Part shown: positions 30,414 through 49,456 of the stretch, piece by piece | How positions within the stretch are numbered: position 1 is the stretch's first letter | Layout: each line of letters starts with the position of its first letter | Translations under genes and position numbers: made by a program | Notes under the pieces: generated by a model | Told to the model about the DNA's origin: nothing | The model's input: only the letters and a program-made list of their open reading frames with translations | The model's database searches: none | NCBI GenBank assembly: GCA_965219415.1 | Contig: OZ244742.1 | Coordinates: 128,001-192,000 of the forward strand | Origin: Candidatus Marinacidobacterales bacterium | Lineage (GTDB): Bacteria; Acidobacteriota; Vicinamibacteria; Marinacidobacterales; DATDRI01 | Length of the DNA stretch: 64,000 nucleotides | Direction of reading: 5' to 3'

Positions 30414-33099
30414 ATGTTCGCCTCCAAAACCGGTGCAACATTAACGTTAACCTTGTGGTTACTCACTCTCGCTGTGGTGCCGGAAACTGCCGCGCAGGAC
30501 GAAGCGTCACTTTGGGGCAGGCTTCTGAAAAGAATAGAAATCAGCGGGTTACGTCACACGAAAAGAGAGCTCGTCATTCGGGAGCTGGCGTCCAAGGAAG
30601 GCCAGCCCTACCTGGCGGAGAATGCCAACCGAGATCCGGAGCGTTTGGATCGTCTGGGCGTTTTCAGCTCGGTGAAATTCAACGCCGTCGCCGAGGGCGA
30701 AGGTGTCGTCCTGCAGGTCGACGTCCAAGAGACGTTCCCGTATCTACCCACCCTGAGCATTGAAATCACGGAAGAAAACGGGACGGCGGTTGGTCCGGGC
30801 TTCAAGTCCGTCAACCTCCTGGGCAAAGCCATCAGCAATCGGAGAGAGCTCTTGTCAATAGGTGTGTAAAAAAGTTCAGGCAGCAGCAACCTTCGACGAC
30901 TCCGTTACCCTGTCTCCATCTTCAAATCGAACGCCCAGGTGAACCTCTCGCATCAGCTCCGGTGCGTTGAGCCGGCGAAAATTCTTCTCCGCAACCAGAA
31001 GCAGTTTGAAGATTGTCGCAGTGGCGGACTCGATTTTCTTGAACCTTTTGGCCGCATCCGTTCTCAATCTCAGTGCAGCGAACGGTGACTCCACGACGTT
31101 GCTCGTGCGAAGGTGTTGCCAGTGAGGCTTGGGAAAGGAATAGAAGCTGACCATCCGCTCCCAGTCCTCGTCGAGCACGTGCGCGGCCCCCGGAAGACCC
31201 TTGCGCAAGCACCAATCCTGGAACTTGGCCTTCTTCGTCTCGCACTCCTGCAGGCTGGTGGGGTAGGGGGTCGCCGTCAACAGCGGCTTGGCCTGCGCCT
31301 GGTCCCTTTTCGGAATCCGGTCCAGTACGTTGAGGATTCGGTGGTTCCAGCACCGCTGCTCCTCAGCTTCTGGAAATACGTTTCGGGTCGCGGCCCAGAT
31401 GCCGAGATGACCGTCACCGATCACCAAACGGGGACATCTCAGACCGCGCTTCTTCAGTCTCCGTAGCAGCGACGACCATGACGCTTCGGATTCTCGATGC
31501 CCGGCCTCCAGCGTCAGGACGATTTTCGTCCCGTCGGACAGGCCACCAACCGCAACTAGCACCGCCGCCTTGTCCTTCTCAAGGCCGGCCTTCACGTACA
31601 CGCCATCTATCCACAGGGACACGAGCTTGAGTTCGTCCAGTGGGCGAGCTAGCCACTGCTCGTACTCTCCCTGCCATTTTCTGTTTCAGCCGCGACACCG
31701 TGCTGGGAGAAAGTGGAGCGTCCTCCCCTAGAAGCCCGCGGAGCGCCAAATCGAAATCTCCGTGAGCTAATCCATGCAGGTACAGCTCCGGAATCAACTC
31801 GCTCACCGTTTCGCTCCGACGCTTGAACAGCGGAAGCACTCGACTTTCGAACCTCTCCTCCACGTCCCGTACTCTCGGCCGGCGAACCGTCACTGTGCCC
31901 ACGCTCATCGTCAGCTTCCGAGGCTTACCGTATCCATTTCGATAGCCCGCCGTTGTGTCCACGGGCTTCCGTCTCTCCGATTTCTCACGCCCGAGAAGCT
32001 CCGTGACTTCGGCTACCATCAGCTCCTGCACCCAATCCTGGATCTCGAGCCTCGCCCACTTCTCCAGCGACTCCCAAGCCACCCTTGACGAGCTCCGTCG
32101 TCTTGTGGTCTTTTCCTTCATGGCGGTGTCTCCTTCCGTTGGCCCCTTCACGCCGTGTTTCGTGACGCGGAAGGTTACTCCGCCTTTACTTTATTTCCAC
32201 ACCTTCTGAGGGTAGCTCCTCGGCCGCCGCCGCCCGGTTCGGTGGCCAGACGGTCGTGGAAGTCAGGGCACAAACCCCTTTGTTCCTGAGCTCAACCATG
32301 TCCTATGAAGGTGCCTTCGTGTACCGTGACCGTTTCAATGAAATTTACGAGTTCCAAGAGGTATCCACAGATTTCGACGTCGGTTTCGGCCGGAGGGGCG
32401 AGACCGGCCGGTTCGGCGCCATCTTCAACTTTCTTTCTGTGAAAAGCGATACCAGTGGGGAGACACTCTCGCCGGTAACAAAGATGAGATCCCTGCTCTG
32501 GGCGCTTTCATTAGTTATGACAGCCGGGACCTCATCTCGAATGCCCATGAAGGCTGGCAGAACCAGTTTGTGGTAGCCAAAAGCGGGATTTTCGGGGCCG
32601 ACAGTGACTTTTGGACCTACACCATCGACGTTCGGAGGTATCAACCCATTGCCCCGCGCCACACGCTCGCGGGGTTCTCCCTCGCTTCGTTGCCACCGGT
32701 ACCGTGGGCGAAGACATACCGGTCTATCTGCAGTTCAACATTGGCGGCACCAACACGGTGCGCGGCTGGACCCTTGGAGCTCGGGAGGGCAAGAACCAAT
32801 TCCTCAACACTCTTGATCCGGAGCGAGGAGCCATCAATTCGTATCGGTACTCAATCTTTGGTTTTTCCGGATTCCTGGGGCTGCAACTGGCAGCGTTCGG
32901 GGACCTCGGGACCGCCTGGAACGATGGGGACCAGTTCATGCCCAGCTTCATTGGTGGGTACGGGTTCGGACTAAGGGCTATCATTCCCTTCGTCAACATG
33001 GTCCGTCTCGATCTCGGCTGGGGGGAGGCCGGTATGGGCGTGCAGGTCGCGATCGGCGTGATGGAGAAGGCGGACATGCAGCGTCGCCGCGTCAGGTAA
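30414..33099 (+). pseudogene. BamA/TamA (Omp85) family outer membrane protein disrupted by IS256
   Basis: POTRA motif IEISGLRHTKRELVIREL; barrel IGGTNTVRGW, FGDLG, GFGLR, VRLDLGWG; several frameshifts. Confidence 0.82.
30846..32218 (-). mobile_element. IS256-family element, type A copy 2
   Basis: Near-identical to 7978..9349; transposase 30876..32121 with an extra T near 31680; flanks ATCGGAGA / CTCGGCCG. Confidence 0.93.
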
Positions 33100-38656: not shown

Positions 38657-39750
38657 GGCTTTATCGGGCAGACGTCGTCGGGAGTATGCTGCGCCCCGAC
38701 TATCTCTTGACCGCCAAGAAGGAACACCGCGCCGGGACGATCTCGCACCGGGAGCTCAAGCGGGTCGAAGACCGCGCCGTCGACGAGTGCATTGCGATGC
38801 AGAAACGCTGCGGCGTGGACGTCCTGACCGACGGAGAGATGCGGCGCAATCTCTTTTCGAGCCAACTGGTTCAGGCCACCGAAGGGTTCGAACGCGTTTC
38901 CGGCAAGTCGGTCGACTGGTTCTCCCTGGAGGGAGAGATCGTGTCCGGCCCGGTATCCATCGGCGTGGTCGGCAAGCTCAAAAGGAAGCGTCACCTTTCG
39001 TCCGAGGAGCTCGTCTACCTCCGCGCCAAGACCAAACATCCAGTCAAGATGACCATCCCCAGCCCTGCGATGTTCACCTTCAACTGGGTGCCCGGAGTAT
39101 CCGATGCCGCTTATCCGACCAACGCGGCCTATTTGGAAGAGGTGACGGATATTCTCAAGGGCGAAGTCATCGAGCTCGTCCGCCTAGGGGCCCGGTACAT
39201 CCAAATCGACGCTCCCGAGTTCGGCATGATCCTCGACCTCCACCAACAGGACTGGTTCCGAGCCAACGGGTTCGAGCCCGAACGCATGGTTCGTGACGGG
39301 ATCGATGTGATCAACACCATCATCGAAGGCCATCCCGACGACGTTACTTTCGCCCTCCACATTTGTCGCGGAAACAACGCCAGCCGATACATGGCGAAAG
39401 GCAGCTATGCCGCAGTGGCGAAGGAGATCTTTGGCCGTACCAAAGTAGATCGCCTGTTGCTCGAGTATGATGACGAGCGTTCCGGCGATTTCGAGCCGCT
39501 CAAAGAAGTACCCGAAGATAAGCTCGTTGTGTTGGGCCTCATCACTACCAAGTGGCCCCGGGATGAAACCAAGGAAGACCTCGAGACTCGGATCCAGCAG
39601 GCGGCACGATACATCCCCCTGGAACGCCTGGCATTGAGCACTCAATGCGGCTTCGCTTCGGTCGCACAGGGAAACGCCATCACTCCTGAGGTTCAAGAAA
39701 AGAAATTGAGGCTCGTCGCCAGAGTCGCCAGAGACGTCTGGCCCGATTGA
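38653..39750 (+). CDS. Cobalamin-independent methionine synthase II-like protein (catalytic domain only)
   Basis: ADVVGSMLRP, TDGEMRR, YIQIDAP; Zn ligands in HICRGN, LLEYD and QCGFAS. Confidence 0.88.
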   Translation: MRLYRADVVGSMLRPDYLLTAKKEHRAGTISHRELKRVEDRAVDECIAMQKRCGVDVLTDGEMRRNLFSSQLVQATEGFERVSGKSVDWFSLEGEIVSGPVSIGVVGKLKRKRHLSSEELVYLRAKTKHPVKMTIPSPAMFTFNWVPGVSDAAYPTNAAYLEEVTDILKGEVIELVRLGARYIQIDAPEFGMILDLHQQDWFRANGFEPERMVRDGIDVINTIIEGHPDDVTFALHICRGNNASRYMAKGSYAAVAKEIFGRTKVDRLLLEYDDERSGDFEPLKEVPEDKLVVLGLITTKWPRDETKEDLETRIQQAARYIPLERLALSTQCGFASVAQGNAITPEVQEKKLRLVARVARDVWPD

Positions 39751-39759
39751 GAGACTACC

Positions 39760-41175
39760 TTGGTTAGGCTCGCAGCCCGTTCCCTCGTTGCTCTCACTCT
39801 GGGGCTATACATCTGCAATTGTGGAACGGAGCCGTCTCAGCAAAAGAGACCGAACATCTTGGTCATCCTTGCCGACGACCTCGGTTACACCGACCTAGGA
39901 CATCTTTGGGAGCGAGATCCGTACTCCGAACTTGGACCGCTTGGCTCGAGAGGGGCTGCTGCTGACGAACTTTCTCGTCTCTCCAACCTGCTCCCCAACA
40001 CGGGCGATGTTGCTGACCGGCGTCGATAGTCATGTTGCAGGCTTGGGAACGATGTTTGGCATCGCCGATGACAATCAGGTCGGCCAGCCCGGATACGAGG
40101 GCGTCCTCAGTGACCGCGTCGTCACGTTCCCGACCCTGCTTCGGGAAAGCGGCTACCGCACTTACATGGTCGGCAAGTGGCACCTAGGGATGGAGGAGCA
40201 CGAGGGCCCACACCGGCGTGGCTTCGAACGTTCGTTCGCTTTGCTTCCGGGCGGTGCGTCGCACTTCAGTGACGCCGAAAGGAACACCGAGATGGACGCC
40301 CCGGCTCCCTATCGCGAAGACGGCCGGGAGGTCGGTTTGCCGGACGATTTCTACTCGAGCAATTTCTACACCGACAAGCTCATCGAGTACTTACGGGACG
40401 GCTTGGGCGAGGACGACCAGCCTTTCTTCGCCTACGCCGCCTACACCTCTCCCCATTGGCCACTTCAGGTTCCCGACGACTATCTCGACCGCTACCGGGG
40501 CGTCTACGACGAAGGCTACGACGTCCTTCGTGCACGACGTTTCGGGAACGCGCAGCAACAAGGTCTCCTTCCTCCCACCGCAGCGCTGCCGGCTCGGATT
40601 CCGTTCGAACGACCCTGGGGCAAACTGTCTGAAGAAGAACGCAAGACTTCGACGCGTACCATGGAGATTTACGCCGCCATGGTGCAGAACCTCGATCACA
40701 ATATCGGTCGCTTAATCGACTTTCTCCATCAGTCTGGCGAGCTCGAAAACACGTTCATCTTCTTTGCATCCGACAACGGCCCAGAGGGCAATCCGCTCGC
40801 CCAGTACGTGAACCCAGATGGATGGCTCGAGAGACGCTTCGACAACAGCTACGAGAACATTGGACGGGTCAACTCCTATGTCTATTACAGTCCTGGATGG
40901 GCGCCGGCGGTCGTGGCGCCGTTCCGGTTGTTCAAAGCATTCCCTAGCGAAGGGGCGTTCGCGTCCCGGCTATCGTGAGGTTTCGTGGCCTCAATCGTGA
41001 CGGTGAACGTAGTGACAGCGTCGCAACGGTCAAAGATGTCGCCTCAACGGTCCTGGATCTCGCGGGAGTCGACCATCCCGGAACGGCTTTCCAGGGAAGA
41101 AACGTAGCCCCTATCGAGGGGACATCGATGCTCCCCTTCCTGACCGGGCGCTCCGTCTCCATTCACGACGACGAT
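39760..41175 (+). pseudogene. Arylsulfatase, frameshifted and 3'-truncated
   Basis: RPNILVILADDLG, CSPTRAMLLTG, GKWHLG, SDNG; ends at SIHDDD where IS110 non-coding DNA begins. Confidence 0.85.
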
Positions 41176-42690
41176 CCGGCTCCCTATCATTGGCGAGGCT
41201 TTGAACGGAAGCACTCCCCAGGGTCAGAATCCTAACAATCGCCATCTCGGGCCGGAGCCTTCACTCACAAAAATACATGTGAGGTCAGTGATGCACAAGC
41301 GCGTGAAAAAGAGTGGTAGGAAGTCGAAGAATCTGTCGCCGCAATCGCTGCCGGTGACAAGGTCGAAGGTAGCAGGCATCGATATTGGCAGTCGTGAGCA
41401 TTGGGTATGTGGGCCGGCCTTGTCGGACGGTAAAGTGAACGTGCGGGTGTTTTCCCCAACGACACCGTCTTTGAATCAAATGGGGGATTGGCTCATCGAG
41501 CAAGGAGTCGAATCGGTTGCGATGGAAAGCACCTACGTCTATTGGATTCCGATTTATGAGTTGCTTGAATCGCGGGGTCTTGAAGTGGTGCTGGTAAATG
41601 CTCGACAGTTAAAAAACGTCCCCGGGCGTAAAACCGATATGCATGACTGTCAGTGGCTGCAGCTGTTACACAGCTGTGGTCTGTTGCGAGGCTCGTTTCG
41701 TCCTGGTGAGTCGATCTGCCGCCTACGCTCGCTTCACCGACAGCGTTGCAGCCTCATCGAGCAGTGTAGTCGAGCTATTCAATGGATACAGAAATCTCTG
41801 GACCAAATGAACGTTCAGGTCCATCGTGCAGTGACCGACATTACCGGCGTCACAGGCATGCTCATCGTGCGCGCCATCGTTGATGGTGAGCGTGACCCGT
41901 CAAAGCTGGCTGCATTTCGTGACCAACGCTGCAAGAAGAGCGAAGAGGAGATCGCCGAGCATCTTACCGGCACTTGGCGTGACGAGCATCTTTTCAACCT
42001 CGCATCGGCTCTGCGTCTCTACGATGCGCTACAAGCCGAAGTCGAACTGTTCGACCAGCGTATCCTTGAAGTGCTCATCGAACTCCAGCCGCCACAACGC
42101 AGACACCACAACGTGCCAGCTCATCCAAATCCGCAAAAACGATACGACATGCAGCATCGGGGCGAGAGCGAACTGCGCAACGAGCTGTGGCGTTTTGCTG
42201 GATGCGACCTCACCAGGATCGACGGAATCAGTCCAACCACCGCCGCCATTGTCCTCACCGAGATCGGATTCGACCTCTCTGATTTCCCCTTCGAAAAATT
42301 CTTCGTCTCATGGCTACATCTCGCCCCACGTCGCCCTATCTCCGGCGGTAAACAACTCTCCAAACGCCGCAACGGCACCGGCTCCAATCGCATCGCCGGT
42401 GCCTTACGTATGGCCGCTGTATCTCTCTCCCGCTCCAAGACCGCCCTAGGCGCTTACTATCGCCGCACTGCTCGCCGTAAAGATGGCAAAACCGCCGTCT
42501 TTGCTACAGCACGCAAGCTCGCCCAGCTCGTCTTCCGCATGCTCAAATATGGCCACGATTACATCGATATCGGCGAACGCGCCTTCGAAGACCGTTTTCG
42601 CCAAAACCACATCAACGGTTTACAAAAGGCAGCCGAAGCTCTCGGATACACCCTCACTCCCCAGGCTTCCGGAGGGTAGTTTCGGGTCAG
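41176..42690 (+). mobile_element. IS110-family element 1, left end apparently deleted
   Basis: Transposase 41291..42679 with GIDIG, AMESTYVYW, GRKTDMHD (DEDD) and ISGG; right end GGGTCAG is repeated at 41221..41227 in the upstream non-coding DNA. Confidence 0.88.
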
Positions 42691-43632
42691 GTGAGCTTGC
42701 TCCGGTTTGGTGGACAAGTTGACTATGCAAACCGGTTTGCTTCCAAGAGTCTAAGTTCGAACTCGATGGGACTGACGTTCCGGAGCGTTGAGTGCCGTCG
42801 CCTCGGGTTGTAAGAAATTGGTGATGTAGTCGACGGTAGCCCATCGCGCCTGCGCTCGAGTCGGCAGAACGAGTCGGTAGAGAGATTCGGTTTTCAGCGT
42901 GCCGAAGAAACTCTCGACGACGGCATTGTCCCAGCAGTCGCCCTTTCGACTCATGCTGCACTCGATTCCGTGGCGTCGCAAGAACGCGCGGTAGTCTCTG
43001 CTCGCGTACTGCACGCCACGGTCCGAATGATGAACCATCCCACGCGGTGGTCGTCGGTGACGCACCGCCATCTGAAGCGCCGAGACAGCGAGCTCTGCGG
43101 CGAAGATGATTCGCCACCGCCCAACCGATCACGCGCCTCGAAAATAGGTCCATGACCACGGCCAAATACAACCAGCCTTCCCACGTTCGGATGTAGGTGA
43201 TGTCCGCAGCCCAGACTTCGTTGGGGGTCTTCGGCAAGAACTGGCGCTGCACGAGGTCTCGAGCTACGGGGCGCGAGTGCGACGAATCCGTCGTCTTCCG
43301 AGAACGTCTCGGCAGGCGCGCGCACAGGCCTTTCTCTCTCATGATGCGAGCAACGCGCCGACGCCCAACAGACTCACCATCCGCACGGAGCTCGTCCACA
43401 ACACGAGGACTTCCGTAAACTCCGCGGTTGGCTCGGAAGGACGCAACGATTTTTACGGACAGGCGCAGGTCATCTCGTTCACGGCGGCTGGGCTTCCGCC
43501 TCAGCCACGCATAGTAGCCGCTCCGAGAAACCTGGAGCAGCCGGCACATCCACGAAACGTGGAACTCCTCGCTTTGGATCCGAATCGCTGCGAACTTCAT
43601 TTCTTCATGCTCGCGAAGTACGCCGCCGTTTT

Positions 43633-45238
43633 CCTAAGAAACTCCGGTGTGCGGACTCGATGCAGCCGCCTCTACCAACGTGTAGCCTAATTGACGAGCG
43701 CGACGCTGGAGGTTGTGGAGGACCCTCTCCTGATAATGTCTCTCGTAGTAGTCGGTGCCAGGATCGACATAGGCGAGTCCGAAGCGAACGGCGTTGTAGA
43801 ACAGCACTGCTAACTTTCTCGCTGTCGCGGTCACTGCCTTCGCCTTGCCGACTCGTGCGCCCACTCGACGGTAGAATGCACCAAGGGCGGTCTGCGTTCG
43901 CCCAACGTTCACCGCAGCGATACGAAAGAGCGCGGCGGCGCGATTCGAGGACCGACGCGACTTCGAACTCAGCACGCGGCCGCCCGAGATCTTGTTGCCG
44001 GGTGCTAGGGTCAGCCACGACGTGAAGTGTTTGGCGGTCGGCCATTTCCGCATGTCGTCACCGCATTCGGCGACGAGTCGCAGAACCGTGTACGGACCCA
44101 ATCCATGGATCTGGCTCAAATCGGCACCCAAGAGGGTATACAGAGCTCCCCGTACATCGAACTTCGGTTCGTTCTTCCCGCTCGCATGTCGGACACGTGG
44201 AATCGGCTCGTCGGGCGCAGTTCGATCGTGGTTCAGCTCGCCTATAGCGGCTTCGACCTCCACGTCGCATTCGGTGACCCTCGCTTGAACGAAGTCATAG
44301 AGTTGGAGCTCATGGCGTAGCGCGAAGAGGTGTTCGAGCCGGTAGTTACCTGTCAGAGCCTCGCGGATCGTTTCGACAGATTGCTTGCATCGGACGTCAC
44401 GGTACTGGGCAAGCACGTCGGGCTCGTGAACACCGCCGACTATAGCGCGAATGATCTTCATGCCCGTGACACCTGTAATATCAGTCACTACGTGCTGAAG
44501 CTGGACGTTCATCTGCATAAGGGCTTTCTGCATCCGCTGGATGTGCGTCGCTGCCTGGTTGATGAGGCGTTCACGGTGGCGAAGAAGTGCCCGGAGCCGA
44601 ACCAACTGACCACGAGGCCGGAAGCTGCCGCGAAGAAGACCATGCTCGTGCAGCTGCTGTAGCCACTGAGCATCGTTGACGTCGGTCTTCCGCCCTGGGA
44701 CATTCTTGACGTCACGTGCGTTGACCAGGAGCACCTCGAACCCGCGCGCTTCCAAGATCTCGAAGGCTGGAATCCAGTACACTCCTGTCGATTCCATAGC
44801 GATGGTGGTGATCCCGACCTCTGCGAGCCAGTCGGCCAACTGGTGTAGGTCGCCCGTGAAGCTTCGAAACGTCCGCACGGACATCTCGACCCGCTCCGGT
44901 GGGACCGCAACCACATGGAATGTCGCTCCGATGTCGATTCCTGCGGCGTTAACGTGGATGGACGTAATGGATCGTCTGGACGACTTCCGGCGCTTCCTTC
45001 TTGTCATCATTCCTCCTTCCGGATTAAACCCGAAAGGAGGGATGGGCGGAAGTTCATCATTTTCCTAAACGGGATCGCCAAATGGCGCCACCACTGTCAA
45101 GTCCGCAGCCACCCCCGGACCATGTTTTTTTACGGGATCGAAATCACCAGTAAGCGGACGGCCTCTCCTCTCGAGTAGCCAAGAGGGTAGCCGTCAGGGA
45201 GTTTCTGGTTCAACAGGAGGCGCGCCCGCGCTCGAAGG
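43633..45238 (-). mobile_element. IS110-family element 2, intact
   Basis: Transposase 43634..45010 (GIDIG, AMESTGVYW, GRKTDVND, ISGG); no TIRs; removing it with a 2-bp AA core restores IS3 orfA LKKTAAYFASMKK*. Confidence 0.93.
45011..45238 (-). ncRNA. Putative bridge/seek RNA region of IS110 element 2
   Basis: 5' hairpin GACGGC..GCCGTC, then two CGATCCCGT-N7-(C/A)ATG modules with N7 = AAAAAAA and TTAGGAA; the latter equals the element's right end plus core. Confidence 0.65.
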
Positions 45239-45571
45239 TTTTTTAGAAAGTCACGCTCCATCCGAAGCTCCCGAACTTCCTTTCGGAAGCCACGCAGTTC
45301 TTCGAGTTCCTCGCTCGTCAGGGTTCCGGGACCGCCTTCACCACGGTCGATCCTGTCCTGCCTCACCCAGGCATAAAGCGACGTCTCCGTCACATCGATA
45401 TCCCGGGCTACCACGCTCACTGCCTTGCCGCTCTCCCGAACCAGCTGCACTGCCTCTGCTCGAAATTCCTTCGTGAACTGCCGACGTTTCTTTTTCTCTG
45501 CCATCTGAACACCCATATACCTCTCCGTTCGTTAGGTGTCCACTGAAACGAAGCAGGCCCAAGGTCTCGCC

Positions 45572-46644
45572 TTACTCTACAATCGGAACACTATCTTCGT
45601 ACGTATCCCAGTTCTGCAAGAGCTCCCTGACTACCGCACTGCCTACTCGATAAGCGTTCTCGAGTGCAGGAAAGTAAGCTGAGTAGCCTTTGTCTTTCTT
45701 TTCACCGGAGAGGCTTTCCGCGGCGCTCAAGCCTTCGTGCGGCATGACGTAATTGCTCGCGCTTCGCAAGACCAAAAGGCGGGCCCGGTCCACCTTTCCC
45801 GCTTGCGCAAGAAAATTGAGGGCCTGGTGGGTGCCGGTATCTTCCATTGCCGAGGTGACGAAGTTTCCCTCGTCGTTGGTCCAGTAGTCTACCCAGTCGT
45901 TGGCCCAATCGTTGGCCCAATCGGTGAGCAGTCGGCCGTGCCAGAAGGTAGAGGAGGCCATGTTGTCACCTTTTAGGACAAAGGGAGGTCTCCGGGCGTT
46001 GGGGAAATGGACGTATCGGGAGCGCAACACTTTCATGGCTTCTATATCTTGAAGCGGAATGTCTTTGGTGAGTTGAAAGGCCCATTCCATGAGACCGGTA
46101 TTGAGGTGGTAAACGGCCCCTTCGTCATCGTCCGGGCGAGGCTTTTCGTAGGGACGGGACTTGCGCAAGGGAACGTAACCTGTGGGCCAGTCCTGGGGGC
46201 TTCGCGCATATCGATCTCATGCGCGATGTCCCCGTCCACAAGCCATTCGGCCCACGCGACTGAACCGAGCGACATATCCGCGGGGTCGGCTCCCGCGATG
46301 CCCGCGACCAACCAGTAAGCCTTGGTCAGGTCGAAGCGGGGATCCATTCCGAGTGCCATGACCGTGGAAGCCGCCCGTGCCGTGCCTATGCCGGTCACGA
46401 CGCCAAGAACGCCGTGTTCACTGTACCGGAGGTTCCGGTACCCCTGAGGAAAAGAGATGGTCTCGGGAAGTGGGAATTGCTCCACCCAGTTTTGAAATTC
46501 CCCGGGGCGGTCACCGGCATCATCGGCGGGTTCGAACATCGCGACGACGACGACCTTGACGGGGAGCCGGGCGTCAGGTGTTTGCGAGGGGTAAAGGGAC
46601 CCGGCTAGAAGAATGAGAGGAACAATCGATAATCCGCTCGTCAA
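45572..46644 (-). CDS. Purine nucleoside permease (NUP family), frameshift near 46185
   Basis: VKVVVVAMFE, YWLVAGIAGADP, FVTSAMEDTG, LVLRSASNY, LENAYRVG. Confidence 0.85.
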
Positions 46645-46645
46645 A

Positions 46646-46722
46646 TGGTACGCCTGAGAGGACTTGAACCTCCGACCTACGGATTAGGAATCCGTCGCTC
46701 TATCCGGCTGAGCTACAGGCGC
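46646..46722 (-). tRNA. tRNA-Arg (anticodon CCT)
   Basis: GCGCCTGTAGCTCAGCCGGATAGAGCGACGGATTCCTAATCCGTAGGTCGGAGGTTCAAGTCCTCTCAGGCGTACCA, 77-nt cloverleaf with encoded CCA. Confidence 0.97.
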
Positions 46723-46751
46723 ACAAGGACTTAGGACGACGCCCGATCCCG

Positions 46752-46775
46752 GTGTAGTGAATACCGTAGTGGAAT
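46752..46775. repeat. Putative integrase arm-type sites; second copy at 53717..53740
   Basis: GTGTAGTGAATACCGTAGTGGAAT vs GTGTAGTGAATACCGTCGTGGAAT, each holding tandem GTAGTG(G)AAT-like units. Confidence 0.65.
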
Positions 46776-46779
46776 GGAC

Positions 46780-47431
46780 CCCGGTTTTTGCTCCATGATT
46801 CGCTCCACGCGTCCGCTTTGTGGCTCGGGCTCATATGGGCATATCGTACCACCATGTCCAACTCTTTCCATCCGCCGAGCTCCTGGACGGTGCGGAGGTC
46901 GACGCCGCCCATAACCAGCCTTGAGGCGAAGGTGTGCCTCAGCGTGTGGGGCGTCACATCTTTCGATAGACCCACGGTTCGCCTGGGCCGTGTCGAAGGC
47001 TGTGCGAATGGATTTCAACTGTTCGCCCTTGCGCGGCCCCTTCCAGGCGACAAAGATCGGGTCCTCAGGGCCTGTGTCGGTCGAAACCTTGCGTAACTTC
47101 GACAGCGCCGCATGTAGCTCGCTGTTAATCGGGATCGTTCTCGTCTCTCCATTTTTTGCGTAGGCTCCGTCGACCGTGAGCTGCTTGCGCGCCAAGTCAA
47201 CATTGCCCATCGAAGCGTGAGTGCCTCAGAGGCGGTCCGTGTGCCGGCATGGATGCCCACGAGGACAACGGTCTTCAGCGGTTCGGAGCAAACTGCTAGG
47301 AGCCGTTCCTCTTCATCGTGATCCAGGAATCGGATCTTCCCCTTCGGTTCCTTCAGGAACTTCACTTCGCAGACAGGGTTCTCACCCTCGAACTTCTTCC
47401 ATTGCCTGCACCGATTGAACAAGGCTTTCAA
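46780..47431 (-). pseudogene. Tyrosine recombinase/integrase remnant
   Basis: IRFLDHDEEERLL, AGTR.SE, AKNGETRTIP, TPHTLRHTFAS, LGGW, VRYAH spread over three frames; N-terminus missing. Confidence 0.88.
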
Positions 47432-47673: not shown

Positions 47674-49456
47674 ATGGGCGGTGCGGGCCTAATGTCGCTC
47701 GTCCTACCCTTTCCAACCATCGGAGCTGGCGCGGTAGAGGAGGTGTTGAGTCTGTCTTTCATGGCCTTGACTCCGGGCAGCAGCACGCTAGGAATCTTTG
47801 GGAGTCCTCCAGCCATCCTGTTCTCCGGCGGCTTCCCGTTGTTTCCCGACCCGACGCTCGCGAGTGGCACCGTCACCGTGACAGGCGGAAAGTGTGCCAA
47901 TCTTAGTTGGGAATTGAAACGGCTCCAAACCCCGTGGTTTGGTGGCGTTGGACAAAACAAAATCAAACCGCGAAGAAAGGAGCCGAGATGGGAAGTCTGC
48001 TACGTTCGGTCAAGAAACGCAAGAAGTCGCGTCGTTTGGGTGAGGTCGAGATGGTGAGGCACGAGGATTACGGGGAACTCGCGCTGGACGCCAAGGTAGA
48101 GATGATCCGTTGGTTGGTCCCCCTTGGTCTAATGCACGTTCACGAGTTGCTCGACGACGAAGTGAAGGCGTTGGCGGGAGAGCGATACTCTCGCAAGGAC
48201 GAGCTGGAGCGCGGTCGCCGTCCCGGAAGCAACCCGGGCACGGTAGGGCTTGGCGGCCAGCGGGTACCGATCCGTGTGCCACGGGTTCGGAGCATCGAGG
48301 GAGGAGAGATTCCGCTTCGCTGCTACGAGGCGGTGAGCCACGGCGGTGAGGTGAATGATCTTCTGCTGAAACGAGTTCTCTACGGAATCTCTTGTCGCAA
48401 CTACGAGGCGGCAGCGGAAGCGATTCCGGGCGCCATCGGGCTGTCGAGCTCAACGGTGTCCCGAGGGTTCGTGCAAGCGAGCGCTGCGAAGCTGCGGGAG
48501 ATGCAGGAACGGGATCTGACCGGCGAGGATGTGGTGGTGCTGTTTCTGGATGGGAAGACATTCGCCGAGGCAACGATGGTCGTGGCTCTGGGCATCACGC
48601 TTTGCGGGGAAAAACGCTTCTTGGGCTTCGTGGAGACGGACACGGAGAACGCGCAGGTGTTGACGCCGTTCCTGCGTTCACTGCTCGAGCGGGGACTCGA
48701 TATCTCCCAGGGTCTGCTGGTGATCATCGACGGCGGCAAGGGTCTCCAAGCGGCAGTCAAGAAGGCATTCCGTAAGCGGGCCCTGATACAACGCTGCCAG
48801 TGGCACAAACGTGAAAACGTAGTGAGCTACCTGTCCAAGGGCGAGCAGGCGTCATGGCGCAAGCGGCTCCAGTGGGCCTACAACAGGCCGGAGTACGAAG
48901 AGGCCCTCACTGCGCTCGAGCAACTCCACGGTGAGTTAGAAGAGCGGAACCAATCTGCAGCTGACAGCCTGGAGGAAGGCCTCGAGGAGACGCTGACGTT
49001 GCATCGACTCGGCGTGCACGCGGTGCTGGGCCGTTCGTTCAAGACGACGAACTGCCTTGAGTCCGTCAATGCTCTCGTCGAGGAACGCTGCGCGAAGGTC
49101 GACCACTGGAAGAACTCGAGCCAACGCCAGCGCTGGTTGGCAACGGCGCTCGTAGACATCGAACCGCGCTTGAGGAAGGTGGTGGGCTACCGCCATCTTC
49201 CCAAGCTTCGCGAAGCTCTCAAGCGGGAACTGAAGATCGAGGCGAAGACATCAACCGTATCGAAGAAGAAGGTCGCTTAAACGTGAGCCGTGGAGAGTTT
49301 CAACTAAGAATGGGCTTGACTCTGCCTCCAGGCGTTCCGGAGCCAGCAACGTTTCTATTGATGGCGATCGGTTTGGCGGGGGTGAGCTTGCGTGCAACGC
49401 GGCGAGGCCAACGGTGGCCGGCTTCGGGCAATACCTCTGGTGGCCCCTCTCAATAG
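47674..49456 (+). pseudogene. PEP-CTERM protein remnant (cohesin-like beta domain) split by IS256
   Basis: ...VLSLSFMALTPGSSTL...ASGTVTVTG continues in frame after the IS into GVPEPATFLLMAIGLAGVSLRATRRGQR. Confidence 0.7.
47888..49322 (+). mobile_element. IS256-family element, type B
   Basis: Transposase 47988..49280 (FLDGK, IIDGGKG, QRCQWHK, TTNCLES); TIR core TCTTAGTTG; TSD degenerate. Confidence 0.9.

Follow-up and report, generated by a model that had tools for sequence, protein, structure and literature searches.

An IS110-family bridge-recombinase element very probably guided by RNA into the frameshift runs of IS3-family insertion sequences

The DNA considered here is a stretch of 64,000 nt from a Candidatus Marinacidobacterales bacterium (assembly GCA_965219415.1, contig OZ244742.1, positions 128,001 to 192,000 of the forward strand), which as a whole is called the window. 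On its minus strand, an IS3-family insertion sequence (IS) is split within its A8 slippery run by a second insertion sequence, which belongs to the IS110 family and is very probably a bridge-recombinase element directed by RNA into the frameshift runs of IS3-family elements. The features that define the insertion are as follows.

42692..45561, minus: host IS3-family element, broken at the A8 slippery run, with orfA at 45130-45516 and the orfB pieces at 42620-43600
43633..45238, minus: IS110-family element proper, 1606 bp, from CCTTCGAG at 45238 to TTTCTTAGG at 43633
45239..45244, minus: left junction A6, made of four left-target A's and the AA core (45239-45240)
43629..43632, minus: right junction A4, made of the AA core (43631-43632) and two right-target A's
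43634..45010, minus: recombinase gene, 458 aa, its stop codon TAG lying inside the terminal TTAGG

In the host IS3, orfA carries the Pfam domain HTH_Tnp_1, and HTH_21 and part of an rve domain lie in the orfB pieces. At the left junction, CT-A6 leads into the start of the element, CCTTCGAG (in fuller context GACTTTCT-A6-CCTTCGAG, 45244-45231), and the right junction reads TTTCTTAGG followed by A4-CGGCGG (in fuller context GAGTTTCTTAGG-A4-CGGCGGCGTAC, 43644-43618). A search of the source genome (8.05 Mb in 3 contigs) recovered four other copies of the host IS3 (C1:1070647-1071907, C1:719414-720675, C3:281193-282415, and C3:2360779-2362040); with the copy in the window, the five are 99.5% alike. 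The four others are uninterrupted and read CT-A8-CGGCGG, which establishes that the element is 1606 bp long, that its first bases are CC and its last GG, and that AA has been added; the occupied site has 6+4 A's versus A8 in the empty one, a gain of exactly two. The same empty site is found in contigs from three public runs, which omit 43631-45238 (1608 bases, two letters of which fit either side). Upon removal of the element, orfA ends in LKKTAAYFA, and from the A-run onward orfB is read in the -1 frame; thus, the insertion lies inside the slippery heptamer. An earlier note on this DNA had proposed that an IS110 element occupies the A-run at the orfA/orfB junction of an IS3 and that excision with a 2-bp AA core restores an orfA end LKKTAAYF. 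Both the placement, with all of its coordinates, and the core are confirmed by the sequence and by the empty copies. Consistent with membership of the IS110 family, there is no target duplication except for one added copy of the 2-nt core, which is common to target and donor.

The recombinase contains the domains PF01548 (DEDD_Tnp_IS110, E 4e-24) and PF02371 (Transposase_20, E 1.8e-12). Since phmmer finds no match to it in PDB even at E 10, a fold search was needed to connect it with IS621. The AlphaFold model (mean predicted local distance difference test score, pLDDT, of 82) has as its best Foldseek matches in PDB the synaptic-complex chains of IS621 (8WT9/8WT6, E 5.5e-11, template-modelling score 0.69) and ISCro4 (9T56). 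In particular, Asp26, Glu73, Asp110, Asp113, and Ser342 (D26, E73, D110, D113, S342) are invariant in 28 sequences and resemble the catalytic residues D11, E60, D102, D105, and S241 of IS621 (available portions of PMC11208160/PMC11208158) in order and spacing, the two features that were compared.

At least 8000 relatives of the recombinase are returned by a protein search, and the best 120 of these are 74-96% identical to it. Eighty relative loci, from more than 10 phyla, were taken from named genome records; because several loci come from the same genome, distinct pairs are used for the statistics. Among these relatives, the upstream non-coding end and the last 12 bases of the element are strongly conserved, and AA is the core in 24 of 25 distinct guide-flank pairs. 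When 38 sites were tested by removing 0-4 nt, the host motif was readable in 20, and in 17 of these the removal of 2 nt was the only one that restored the host frame. The exceptions are L045 and L084, which need 1 nt removed, and L032, for which the script probably chose the wrong frame. A 3-nt core, considered because the tandem copies described below are joined by AAA, is ruled out by the empty sites and by frame restoration.

Between the left junction and the recombinase gene lies a non-coding end of 228 nt, which is predicted to encode the guide RNA together with its associated signals.

45031..45173, minus: predicted bridge RNA core, with a basal stem (45168-45173 with 45031-36) enclosing target-binding and donor-binding arms
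45150..45158, minus: right target guide TCCGCTTAC, on the 5' strand of the target arm
45124..45132, minus: left target guide TAAAAAAAC, same sense as the left target, the AA core, and the element's first C
45094..45102, minus: donor loop 5' strand ACTTGACAG, ACTTG conserved, the expected place of a right donor guide
45061..45069, minus: left donor guide TTTAGGAAA, same sense as the right end TTAGG and the AA core
45184..45213, minus: possible internal promoter, TTGAAC (45208-45213), an 18-nt spacer, and TACCCT (45184-45189)
45198..45206, minus: left copy of a subterminal inverted repeat, AGAAACTCC, reverse complement of 43637-43645
43637..43645, minus: right copy of the same repeat, GGAGTTTCT

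The consensus structure obtained with RNAalifold from an alignment of 54 distinct relative sequences comprises 33 pairs in 7 helices, and 19 of the pairs show compensatory changes. Cells of the alignment are paired in 95.3% of cases, compared with 87.5% upon shuffling and at most 49.7% when partners are slid; the covariation score is 0.292 versus 0.141 in the control, and none of 500 shuffles reaches the observed pairing and covariation values. Three G-U pairs are invariant in all 54 sequences, which identifies the transcribed strand as the sense strand. The predicted shape is a three-way junction, in which the basal stem encloses two arms, each with a short closing stem. Each arm consists of a 9-10-nt 5' strand, a hairpin GGUGA...UCCC, and then a G followed by a 9-nt segment. 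The covariation thus supports, as a predicted structure, an RNA with target and donor loops in the long non-coding end, as expected of a bridge RNA. The two scaffold copies that the earlier note had described, with the segments AAAAAAA (45125-45131) and TTAGGAA (45062-45068), the latter recurring at 43631-43637, are all present. The scaffolds, at 45121-45140 and 45058-45077, are the 3' halves of the arm hairpins, so that the two arms are homologous hairpin-plus-guide modules. With up to one mismatch, the scaffold pattern matches the window four times, versus 0.17 expected, and none of 100 shuffles reaches four. The two remaining matches (39285-39304 and 32949-32968, minus) lie inside unrelated open reading frames (ORFs) and are taken as chance.

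The promoter candidate TTGAAC/TACCCT was chosen because of conservation alone: the TAnnnT columns of its -10-like hexamer are kept in 39/43, 39/43, and 30/45 relatives. Transcription from it would start at about 45177, two bases before the basal stem. A single-sequence fold pairs CCUCCUUUCGGG with CCGGAAGGAGG and in this way hides the ribosome-binding site (45011-45041, minus). As CUCCUUUCG is also the 3' strand of the basal stem, the two folds are mutually exclusive, so that RNA folding and recombinase translation could be coupled.

The guides were recognized by their covariation with the flanks. Among 25 distinct pairs, 23-25 share the letter of the left junction at each of positions 3-9 of the left target guide, and at positions 3-6, where letters vary, guide and flank vary together; on average, 7.76/9 positions match versus 6.06 in shuffled pairings (maximum 6.96 of 2000 shuffles). 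As the earlier note's proposal had demanded, the A-rich segment is variable: in relatives with other targets it changes together with the left flank, to TTGTCAAAC in L019, TTTGACAAC in L030, CAGGGAAAC in L061, and CAAGAAAC in L016. Positions 3-5 of the left donor guide equal the right end of the element in 20/20 distinct pairs, and the guide follows the variant right ends, namely TCAGG in L071/L076 and, together with an AC core, TCGAG in L040; in L016, whose right end is ATAGG, the match falls on donor-guide position 2. The note's identification of this segment with the element's own right end therefore holds. In L040, AC replaces AA in both guides and at both junctions, which is the shared-core rule of bridge RNAs. 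The two guides proposed earlier are thus borne out, though their length is 9 nt and not 7.

Of the two right-hand guide arms that the earlier note had left unassigned, that of the target has been found, at 45150-45158, and that of the donor has not (see below). Through positions 2-6, the right target guide is complementary to the five top-strand nucleotides with which the right target begins. Over 54 distinct pairs, 3.48/5 positions are paired, versus 2.76 upon shuffling (maximum 3.13 of 2000), with examples such as CAACU with AGTTG, CAUCU with AGGTG, and AAAGU with ACTT. Moreover, in 3/3 site types of the source genome, the right target guide pairs best in the register that is observed. A 'handshake' reading of guide position 9 was rejected, since donor-guide position 9 equals the first right-target base in only 11/20 pairs. 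The left-target-guide C and the element's first C are both invariant and are consequently uninformative in this respect.

Together, these features suggest how the element may work. Its 5' non-coding end would encode a bridge RNA of approx. 145 nt, folded as a three-way junction, which would be transcribed and would guide the reaction. On the 5' side of the target arm, the right target guide would pair with the top strand to the right of the core. The donor arm would repeat the hairpin-plus-guide module, its guide reading the right end of the element and the core. With an AA core common to target and donor, recombination would add one core copy. The guides appear to be set to an A-run followed by GC or CGG, that is, to the -1 frameshift heptamer of IS3-family elements and the codons that follow it, and because of this setting the element would land in other insertion sequences, always in the sense orientation. 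On this reading, the element is a parasite of parasites that very probably works by the known bridge-RNA mechanism.

The targets of the relatives accord with this specificity to a large extent. A6 or A7 precedes the element at 45 of the 63 readable left junctions, and of the 80 right junctions, 55 have A3 after it. When the right flanks of 81 loci (the 80 relatives and the window) were screened for motifs, the following classes were obtained, a slash marking the insertion point.

IS3 pattern KK/AAAFFA: 27 loci
second IS3 pattern QKK/..ELLGI: 7 loci
matching neither pattern: 46 loci, including, by eye, at least 6 further IS3 cases
no right end found: 1 locus

Pfam searches of representative loci identified IS3 hosts in L021, L042, and L060 (HTH_Tnp_1 on the left, rve on the right), IS630-like hosts in L078 and L065 (winged-helix domains on the left, DDE_3 on the right), and an IS1380-like host in L049 (DDE_Tnp_1_4). 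The host of L016 is a protein with a Mu-transposase C-terminal domain, which its N-terminal helix-turn-helix suggests to be IS21-like. In every locus checked in this way, the element lies in the sense orientation relative to the host gene. Across more than 10 phyla, relatives thus occupy the same place in IS3 elements, and others occupy an A8 -1 frameshift run of IS630-like elements or IS21-like and IS1380-like genes.

The IS630-like host could be followed within the genome of L078 (G001, L087-L100), in which 15 copies were found, 12 of them readable at the site. Their states are listed below.

empty, TTC-A8-GTGGCC: 4 copies
empty variant, A7: 1 copy
occupied, TTC-A7 on the left: 6 copies
other sequence after an A6 run: 1 copy

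With A3-GTGGCC on the right of the occupied loci read there, two A's have been gained in this case as well. In the host with A8, the DDE_3 frame is -1 relative to the helix-turn-helix frame, and so, as read from the frames, the IS630-like run is also a recoding site. Two observations on other loci bear on the register of insertion. Five copies in one genome (L030, L031, L033-L035) lie in a non-coding TTTGACAA/TGAATATGAG repeat, with 2 bases between the right-end GG and TGAAT/TCAAT in two copies and 3 in the other three (AA, AAA, AAC); this variation in spacing suggests another sign of imprecise register. In two other genomes, the right flanks of L062 and L075 reveal head-to-tail pairs, with 5 and 3 A's at the joints.

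A rival explanation accepts RNA guidance but not the aim at recoding. According to it, guides evolve toward any short, conserved, multi-copy, and harmless sequence, i.e., transposase genes, and A-runs are struck often only because an AA core with A's beside it is needed. The clade does enter sites of which none is a frameshift site, namely IS21-like genes at YKK/SIR, IS1380-like genes at FWA/NQL, and the non-coding TTTGACAA/TGAAT repeat, and the near-constancy of the AA core fits this account as well. So does a 38-bp right-end remnant in the source genome (L006, G000:C3:4546039-4546076), which adjoins AAAGCGCTTACGCTCC within a repeat with GC-A7-GCGCTT; the 33 further copies of this repeat are unoccupied, and no frame is open across the single copy that was translated. 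Against it, three host groups, two IS3 subgroups and the IS630-like elements, are struck exactly at the slippery run, and they make up the largest share of loci. This explanation is therefore plausible, but we regard it as probably not the correct one. The suggestion of the earlier note that the element is aimed at the recoding motif is accordingly upheld for these three groups and fails for the non-recoding IS21-like and IS1380-like sites.

In the source genome the element occurs five times, its copies being identical as far as they align, in addition to the 38-bp remnant. The four full copies outside the window form two head-to-tail pairs. Each pair interrupts, at its A8 slippery run, a second IS3-family element that is unrelated to the first, and the remnant also lies beside an A-run, so that the other copies sit, as predicted, at A-rich sites. 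This second host encodes a 155-aa orfA ending LEIQKKASELLGIPLN and a 438-aa DDE ORF in the -1 frame, the two overlapping at A8. Its two occupied copies are only ~80% alike in their flanks. An empty paralogue reads CC-A8-GCC and has flanks that are 100% and 99.9% identical to those of one occupied copy. Both tandem loci read A7-element-AAA-element-AAA, i.e., they share the same 7-3-3 pattern of A's, and one of them lies 4 kb from the inverted empty paralogue. The joint inside these pairs is a proxy for that of a putative circular intermediate.

Several observations count against the proposed guidance, or against parts of it. At the window site, the left guide fits better one register further to the right (8/8 versus 6/8), and in L040 the right target guide does not fit its site. 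The tandem joint is AAA and not AA: two 2-nt insertions into A8 give 12 A's, and 13 are observed. An A9 target, slipped excision, and unequal exchange are possible sources of the extra A. Among the 654 runs of at least 7 A's in the genome are those of a 22-copy IS3 with the canonical VERDVLKKAAAFFAKESE and stop and a TT-A7-GCCGCG site (e.g., three copies on C1); none of its 22 copies is occupied, though their pairing score of 12.0 equals or beats the 11.0 of occupied sites. In G001, 6/11 readable copies of the IS630-like host are occupied, as opposed to 0/22 for this host. A 52-copy repeat with a poorer pairing score is also unoccupied in the source genome. Furthermore, Rfam gives no match at E up to 1 within 40500-46000, and a strict sigma-70 promoter scan finds no promoter in 43560-45320.

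Two further points concern the donor side and the fate of the host. A right donor guide was not found: mutual information, a position-wise complement scan, and an alignment-free scan of both donor-loop strands gave nothing above controls, and bases 2-3 of the element vary among near-identical relatives while the RNA stays the same. As for the host, all five IS3 copies share an orfB frameshift that splits rve between the first and second catalytic Asp, so that nothing was left for the insertion to disable here; on this evidence, it inactivated no working host IS3 at the window site. The earlier note had held that the site is a safe harbour and that insertion disables the host element. In general, insertion may silence the host IS, and the conservation of the site, its many copies, and its harmlessness to the cell may be the reasons for its choice.

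It is also conceivable that the element is a dead relic in this genome, its five copies having been carried along passively as host elements were duplicated or underwent unequal exchange. Only three loci are occupied, and the good sites of the 22-copy IS3 are unused; the identical 7-3-3 patterns, and the position of one tandem near the inverted empty paralogue, point the same way. Yet the three loci lie in two unrelated IS3 elements, the flanks of the tandem loci are only ~80% alike while the five copies do not differ as far as they align, the reading frame is intact, and related strains carry the element beside further flanks. Passive spread is consequently judged unlikely.

In the search for a right donor guide, the 5' strand of the donor loop (45094-45102) showed no complementarity to the element ends. 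Two candidates were discarded. CTCGAGAGG looks like the left end in complement but forms the 5' strand of the basal stem, and GAAGGAGGA, before the start codon, is the ribosome-binding site. The subterminal inverted repeat (AGAAAC...) measures 6-9 bp and is asymmetric, since 33 nt separate its left copy from the left end and 4 nt its right copy from the right end. Its left copy sits between the -35-like and the conserved -10-like hexamers, outside the predicted RNA. The two copies match at 7.37/9 positions versus 6.86 upon shuffling (27 distinct pairs), with joint changes in L032, L037, and L074. That the repeated modules are DNA binding sites of the recombinase rather than RNA guides, the A-run being chosen through protein or DNA shape, is scarcely credible: the presence of this inverted repeat in the possible promoter spacer speaks for it, but a DNA-binding repeat cannot explain why one module tracks the flanking target in each relative, why pairs change in a compensatory manner while G-U pairs stay invariant, or why the match of the right target guide is complementary and not identical.

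Other mobile DNA surrounds the host IS3. A second IS110-family element (41172-42693, plus) encodes a 492-aa ORF that is 46% identical to the recombinase studied here, and at 42692/42693 its 3' end and the end of the host IS3 meet. Of its other copies, five extend upstream past 41172, which indicates that the copy in the window is cut off at its 5' end; two align only from 41453 and one only from 41660. According to the ORF list only, tyrosine-recombinase-like ORF pieces (46640-47431, minus) adjoin an apparent tRNA gene, and a 457-aa ORF (47907-49280, plus) resembles an IS256-type transposase.

Compared with IS621 and ISCro4, as these are described in the available portions of PMC11208160 and PMC11208158, the element has the same fold and the same two-domain (DEDD and Tnp) protein, an RNA encoded upstream of the gene, separate target and donor loops, and a 2-nt core common to target and donor; likewise, the bottom strand is read by the left guides and the top strand by the right target guide. 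The differences are also considerable. The protein has 458 aa rather than ~320, the core is AA rather than the CT of IS621, and the inverted repeat is 6-9 bp long rather than 2-3 bp. The right guide comes first (5') in the target loop and the left guide second, whereas in IS621 the left guide (approximately position 53) precedes the right (74-82). Unlike in IS621, the loops branch from a three-way junction, and no right donor guide was found.

ISEc21, an IS110-group element that targets IS3 transposase genes at DDE codons (PMC11187229, in the portions available), likewise has an upstream non-coding region whose RNA directs insertion into IS3-family transposase genes. Its transposase has 358 aa, in contrast to 458 aa here, and belongs to another cluster, and its top-strand match lies 3' of the bottom-strand match, opposite to the arrangement in this element. 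The same portions place proteins of 395-455 aa in the subgroup that holds IS110 itself and report that the tested IS1111 members have the guide order found here (right guide, hairpin, left guide). The IS1111-group elements IS4321/IS5075, in Tn21-family repeats, and IS1383, in IS1384 repeats, are also DEDD elements inside other mobile elements and carry subterminal inverted repeats; however, their RNA region lies downstream of the gene and their targets are terminal repeats, whereas here the RNA region is upstream and the target is coding sequence. The element lacks the downstream RNA and long right end of the IS1111 group, as its stop codon lies in the last 5 bases and its long non-coding end is upstream; subterminal inverted repeats in that group measure 7-17 bp, and the one seen here, of 6-9 bp, is asymmetric.

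Tandem IS110 modules and half-match recombination are described in two preprints (10.64898/2026.08.14.744561 and 10.64898/2026.08.31.748434, in the parts available). Head-to-tail complete pairs resemble these at two loci of the source genome and at L062 and L075, but here the joint has one A beyond the core, which may reflect slipping of the register within the homopolymer, a behaviour that the available parts of the preprints do not mention. A literature search that included the text of bridge-RNA papers, so far as it was available, revealed no IS110 element aimed at the frameshift run of IS3 or IS630 elements; supplementary target lists may hold some. Thus, the bridge-RNA mechanism and the targeting of IS3 by IS110 elements, at another site, are already known, and the specialization for slippery sites, the reversed guide order, and the AA core set this element apart.

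A more far-reaching proposal, which is put forward tentatively and is rather doubtful in its entirety, is that these elements form a clade of large bridge recombinases that live, across many phyla, only inside other insertion sequences. The AA core and A-run targets would let the register slip, which would explain the tandems with an extra A and the joints of 2, 3, or 5 A's; insertion and excision could add or remove an A and in this way switch the host transposase on or off; and the donor would be recognized without a right donor guide, through one guide and protein contacts to the inverted repeat. If true, bridge recombination would have a variant that differs in mechanism, and a natural regulator would act on populations of IS3 and IS630 elements.

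With respect to RNA-guided insertion into frameshift runs itself, the guide RNA would be set to a short sequence that two large IS families cannot easily change, and parasitism between insertion sequences would become testable. For tool builders, the element offers a well-sampled bridge-RNA architecture unlike that of IS621, in which dozens of natural re-targetings show the positions that are read, as well as the effect of a homopolymer core on the precision of the joint.

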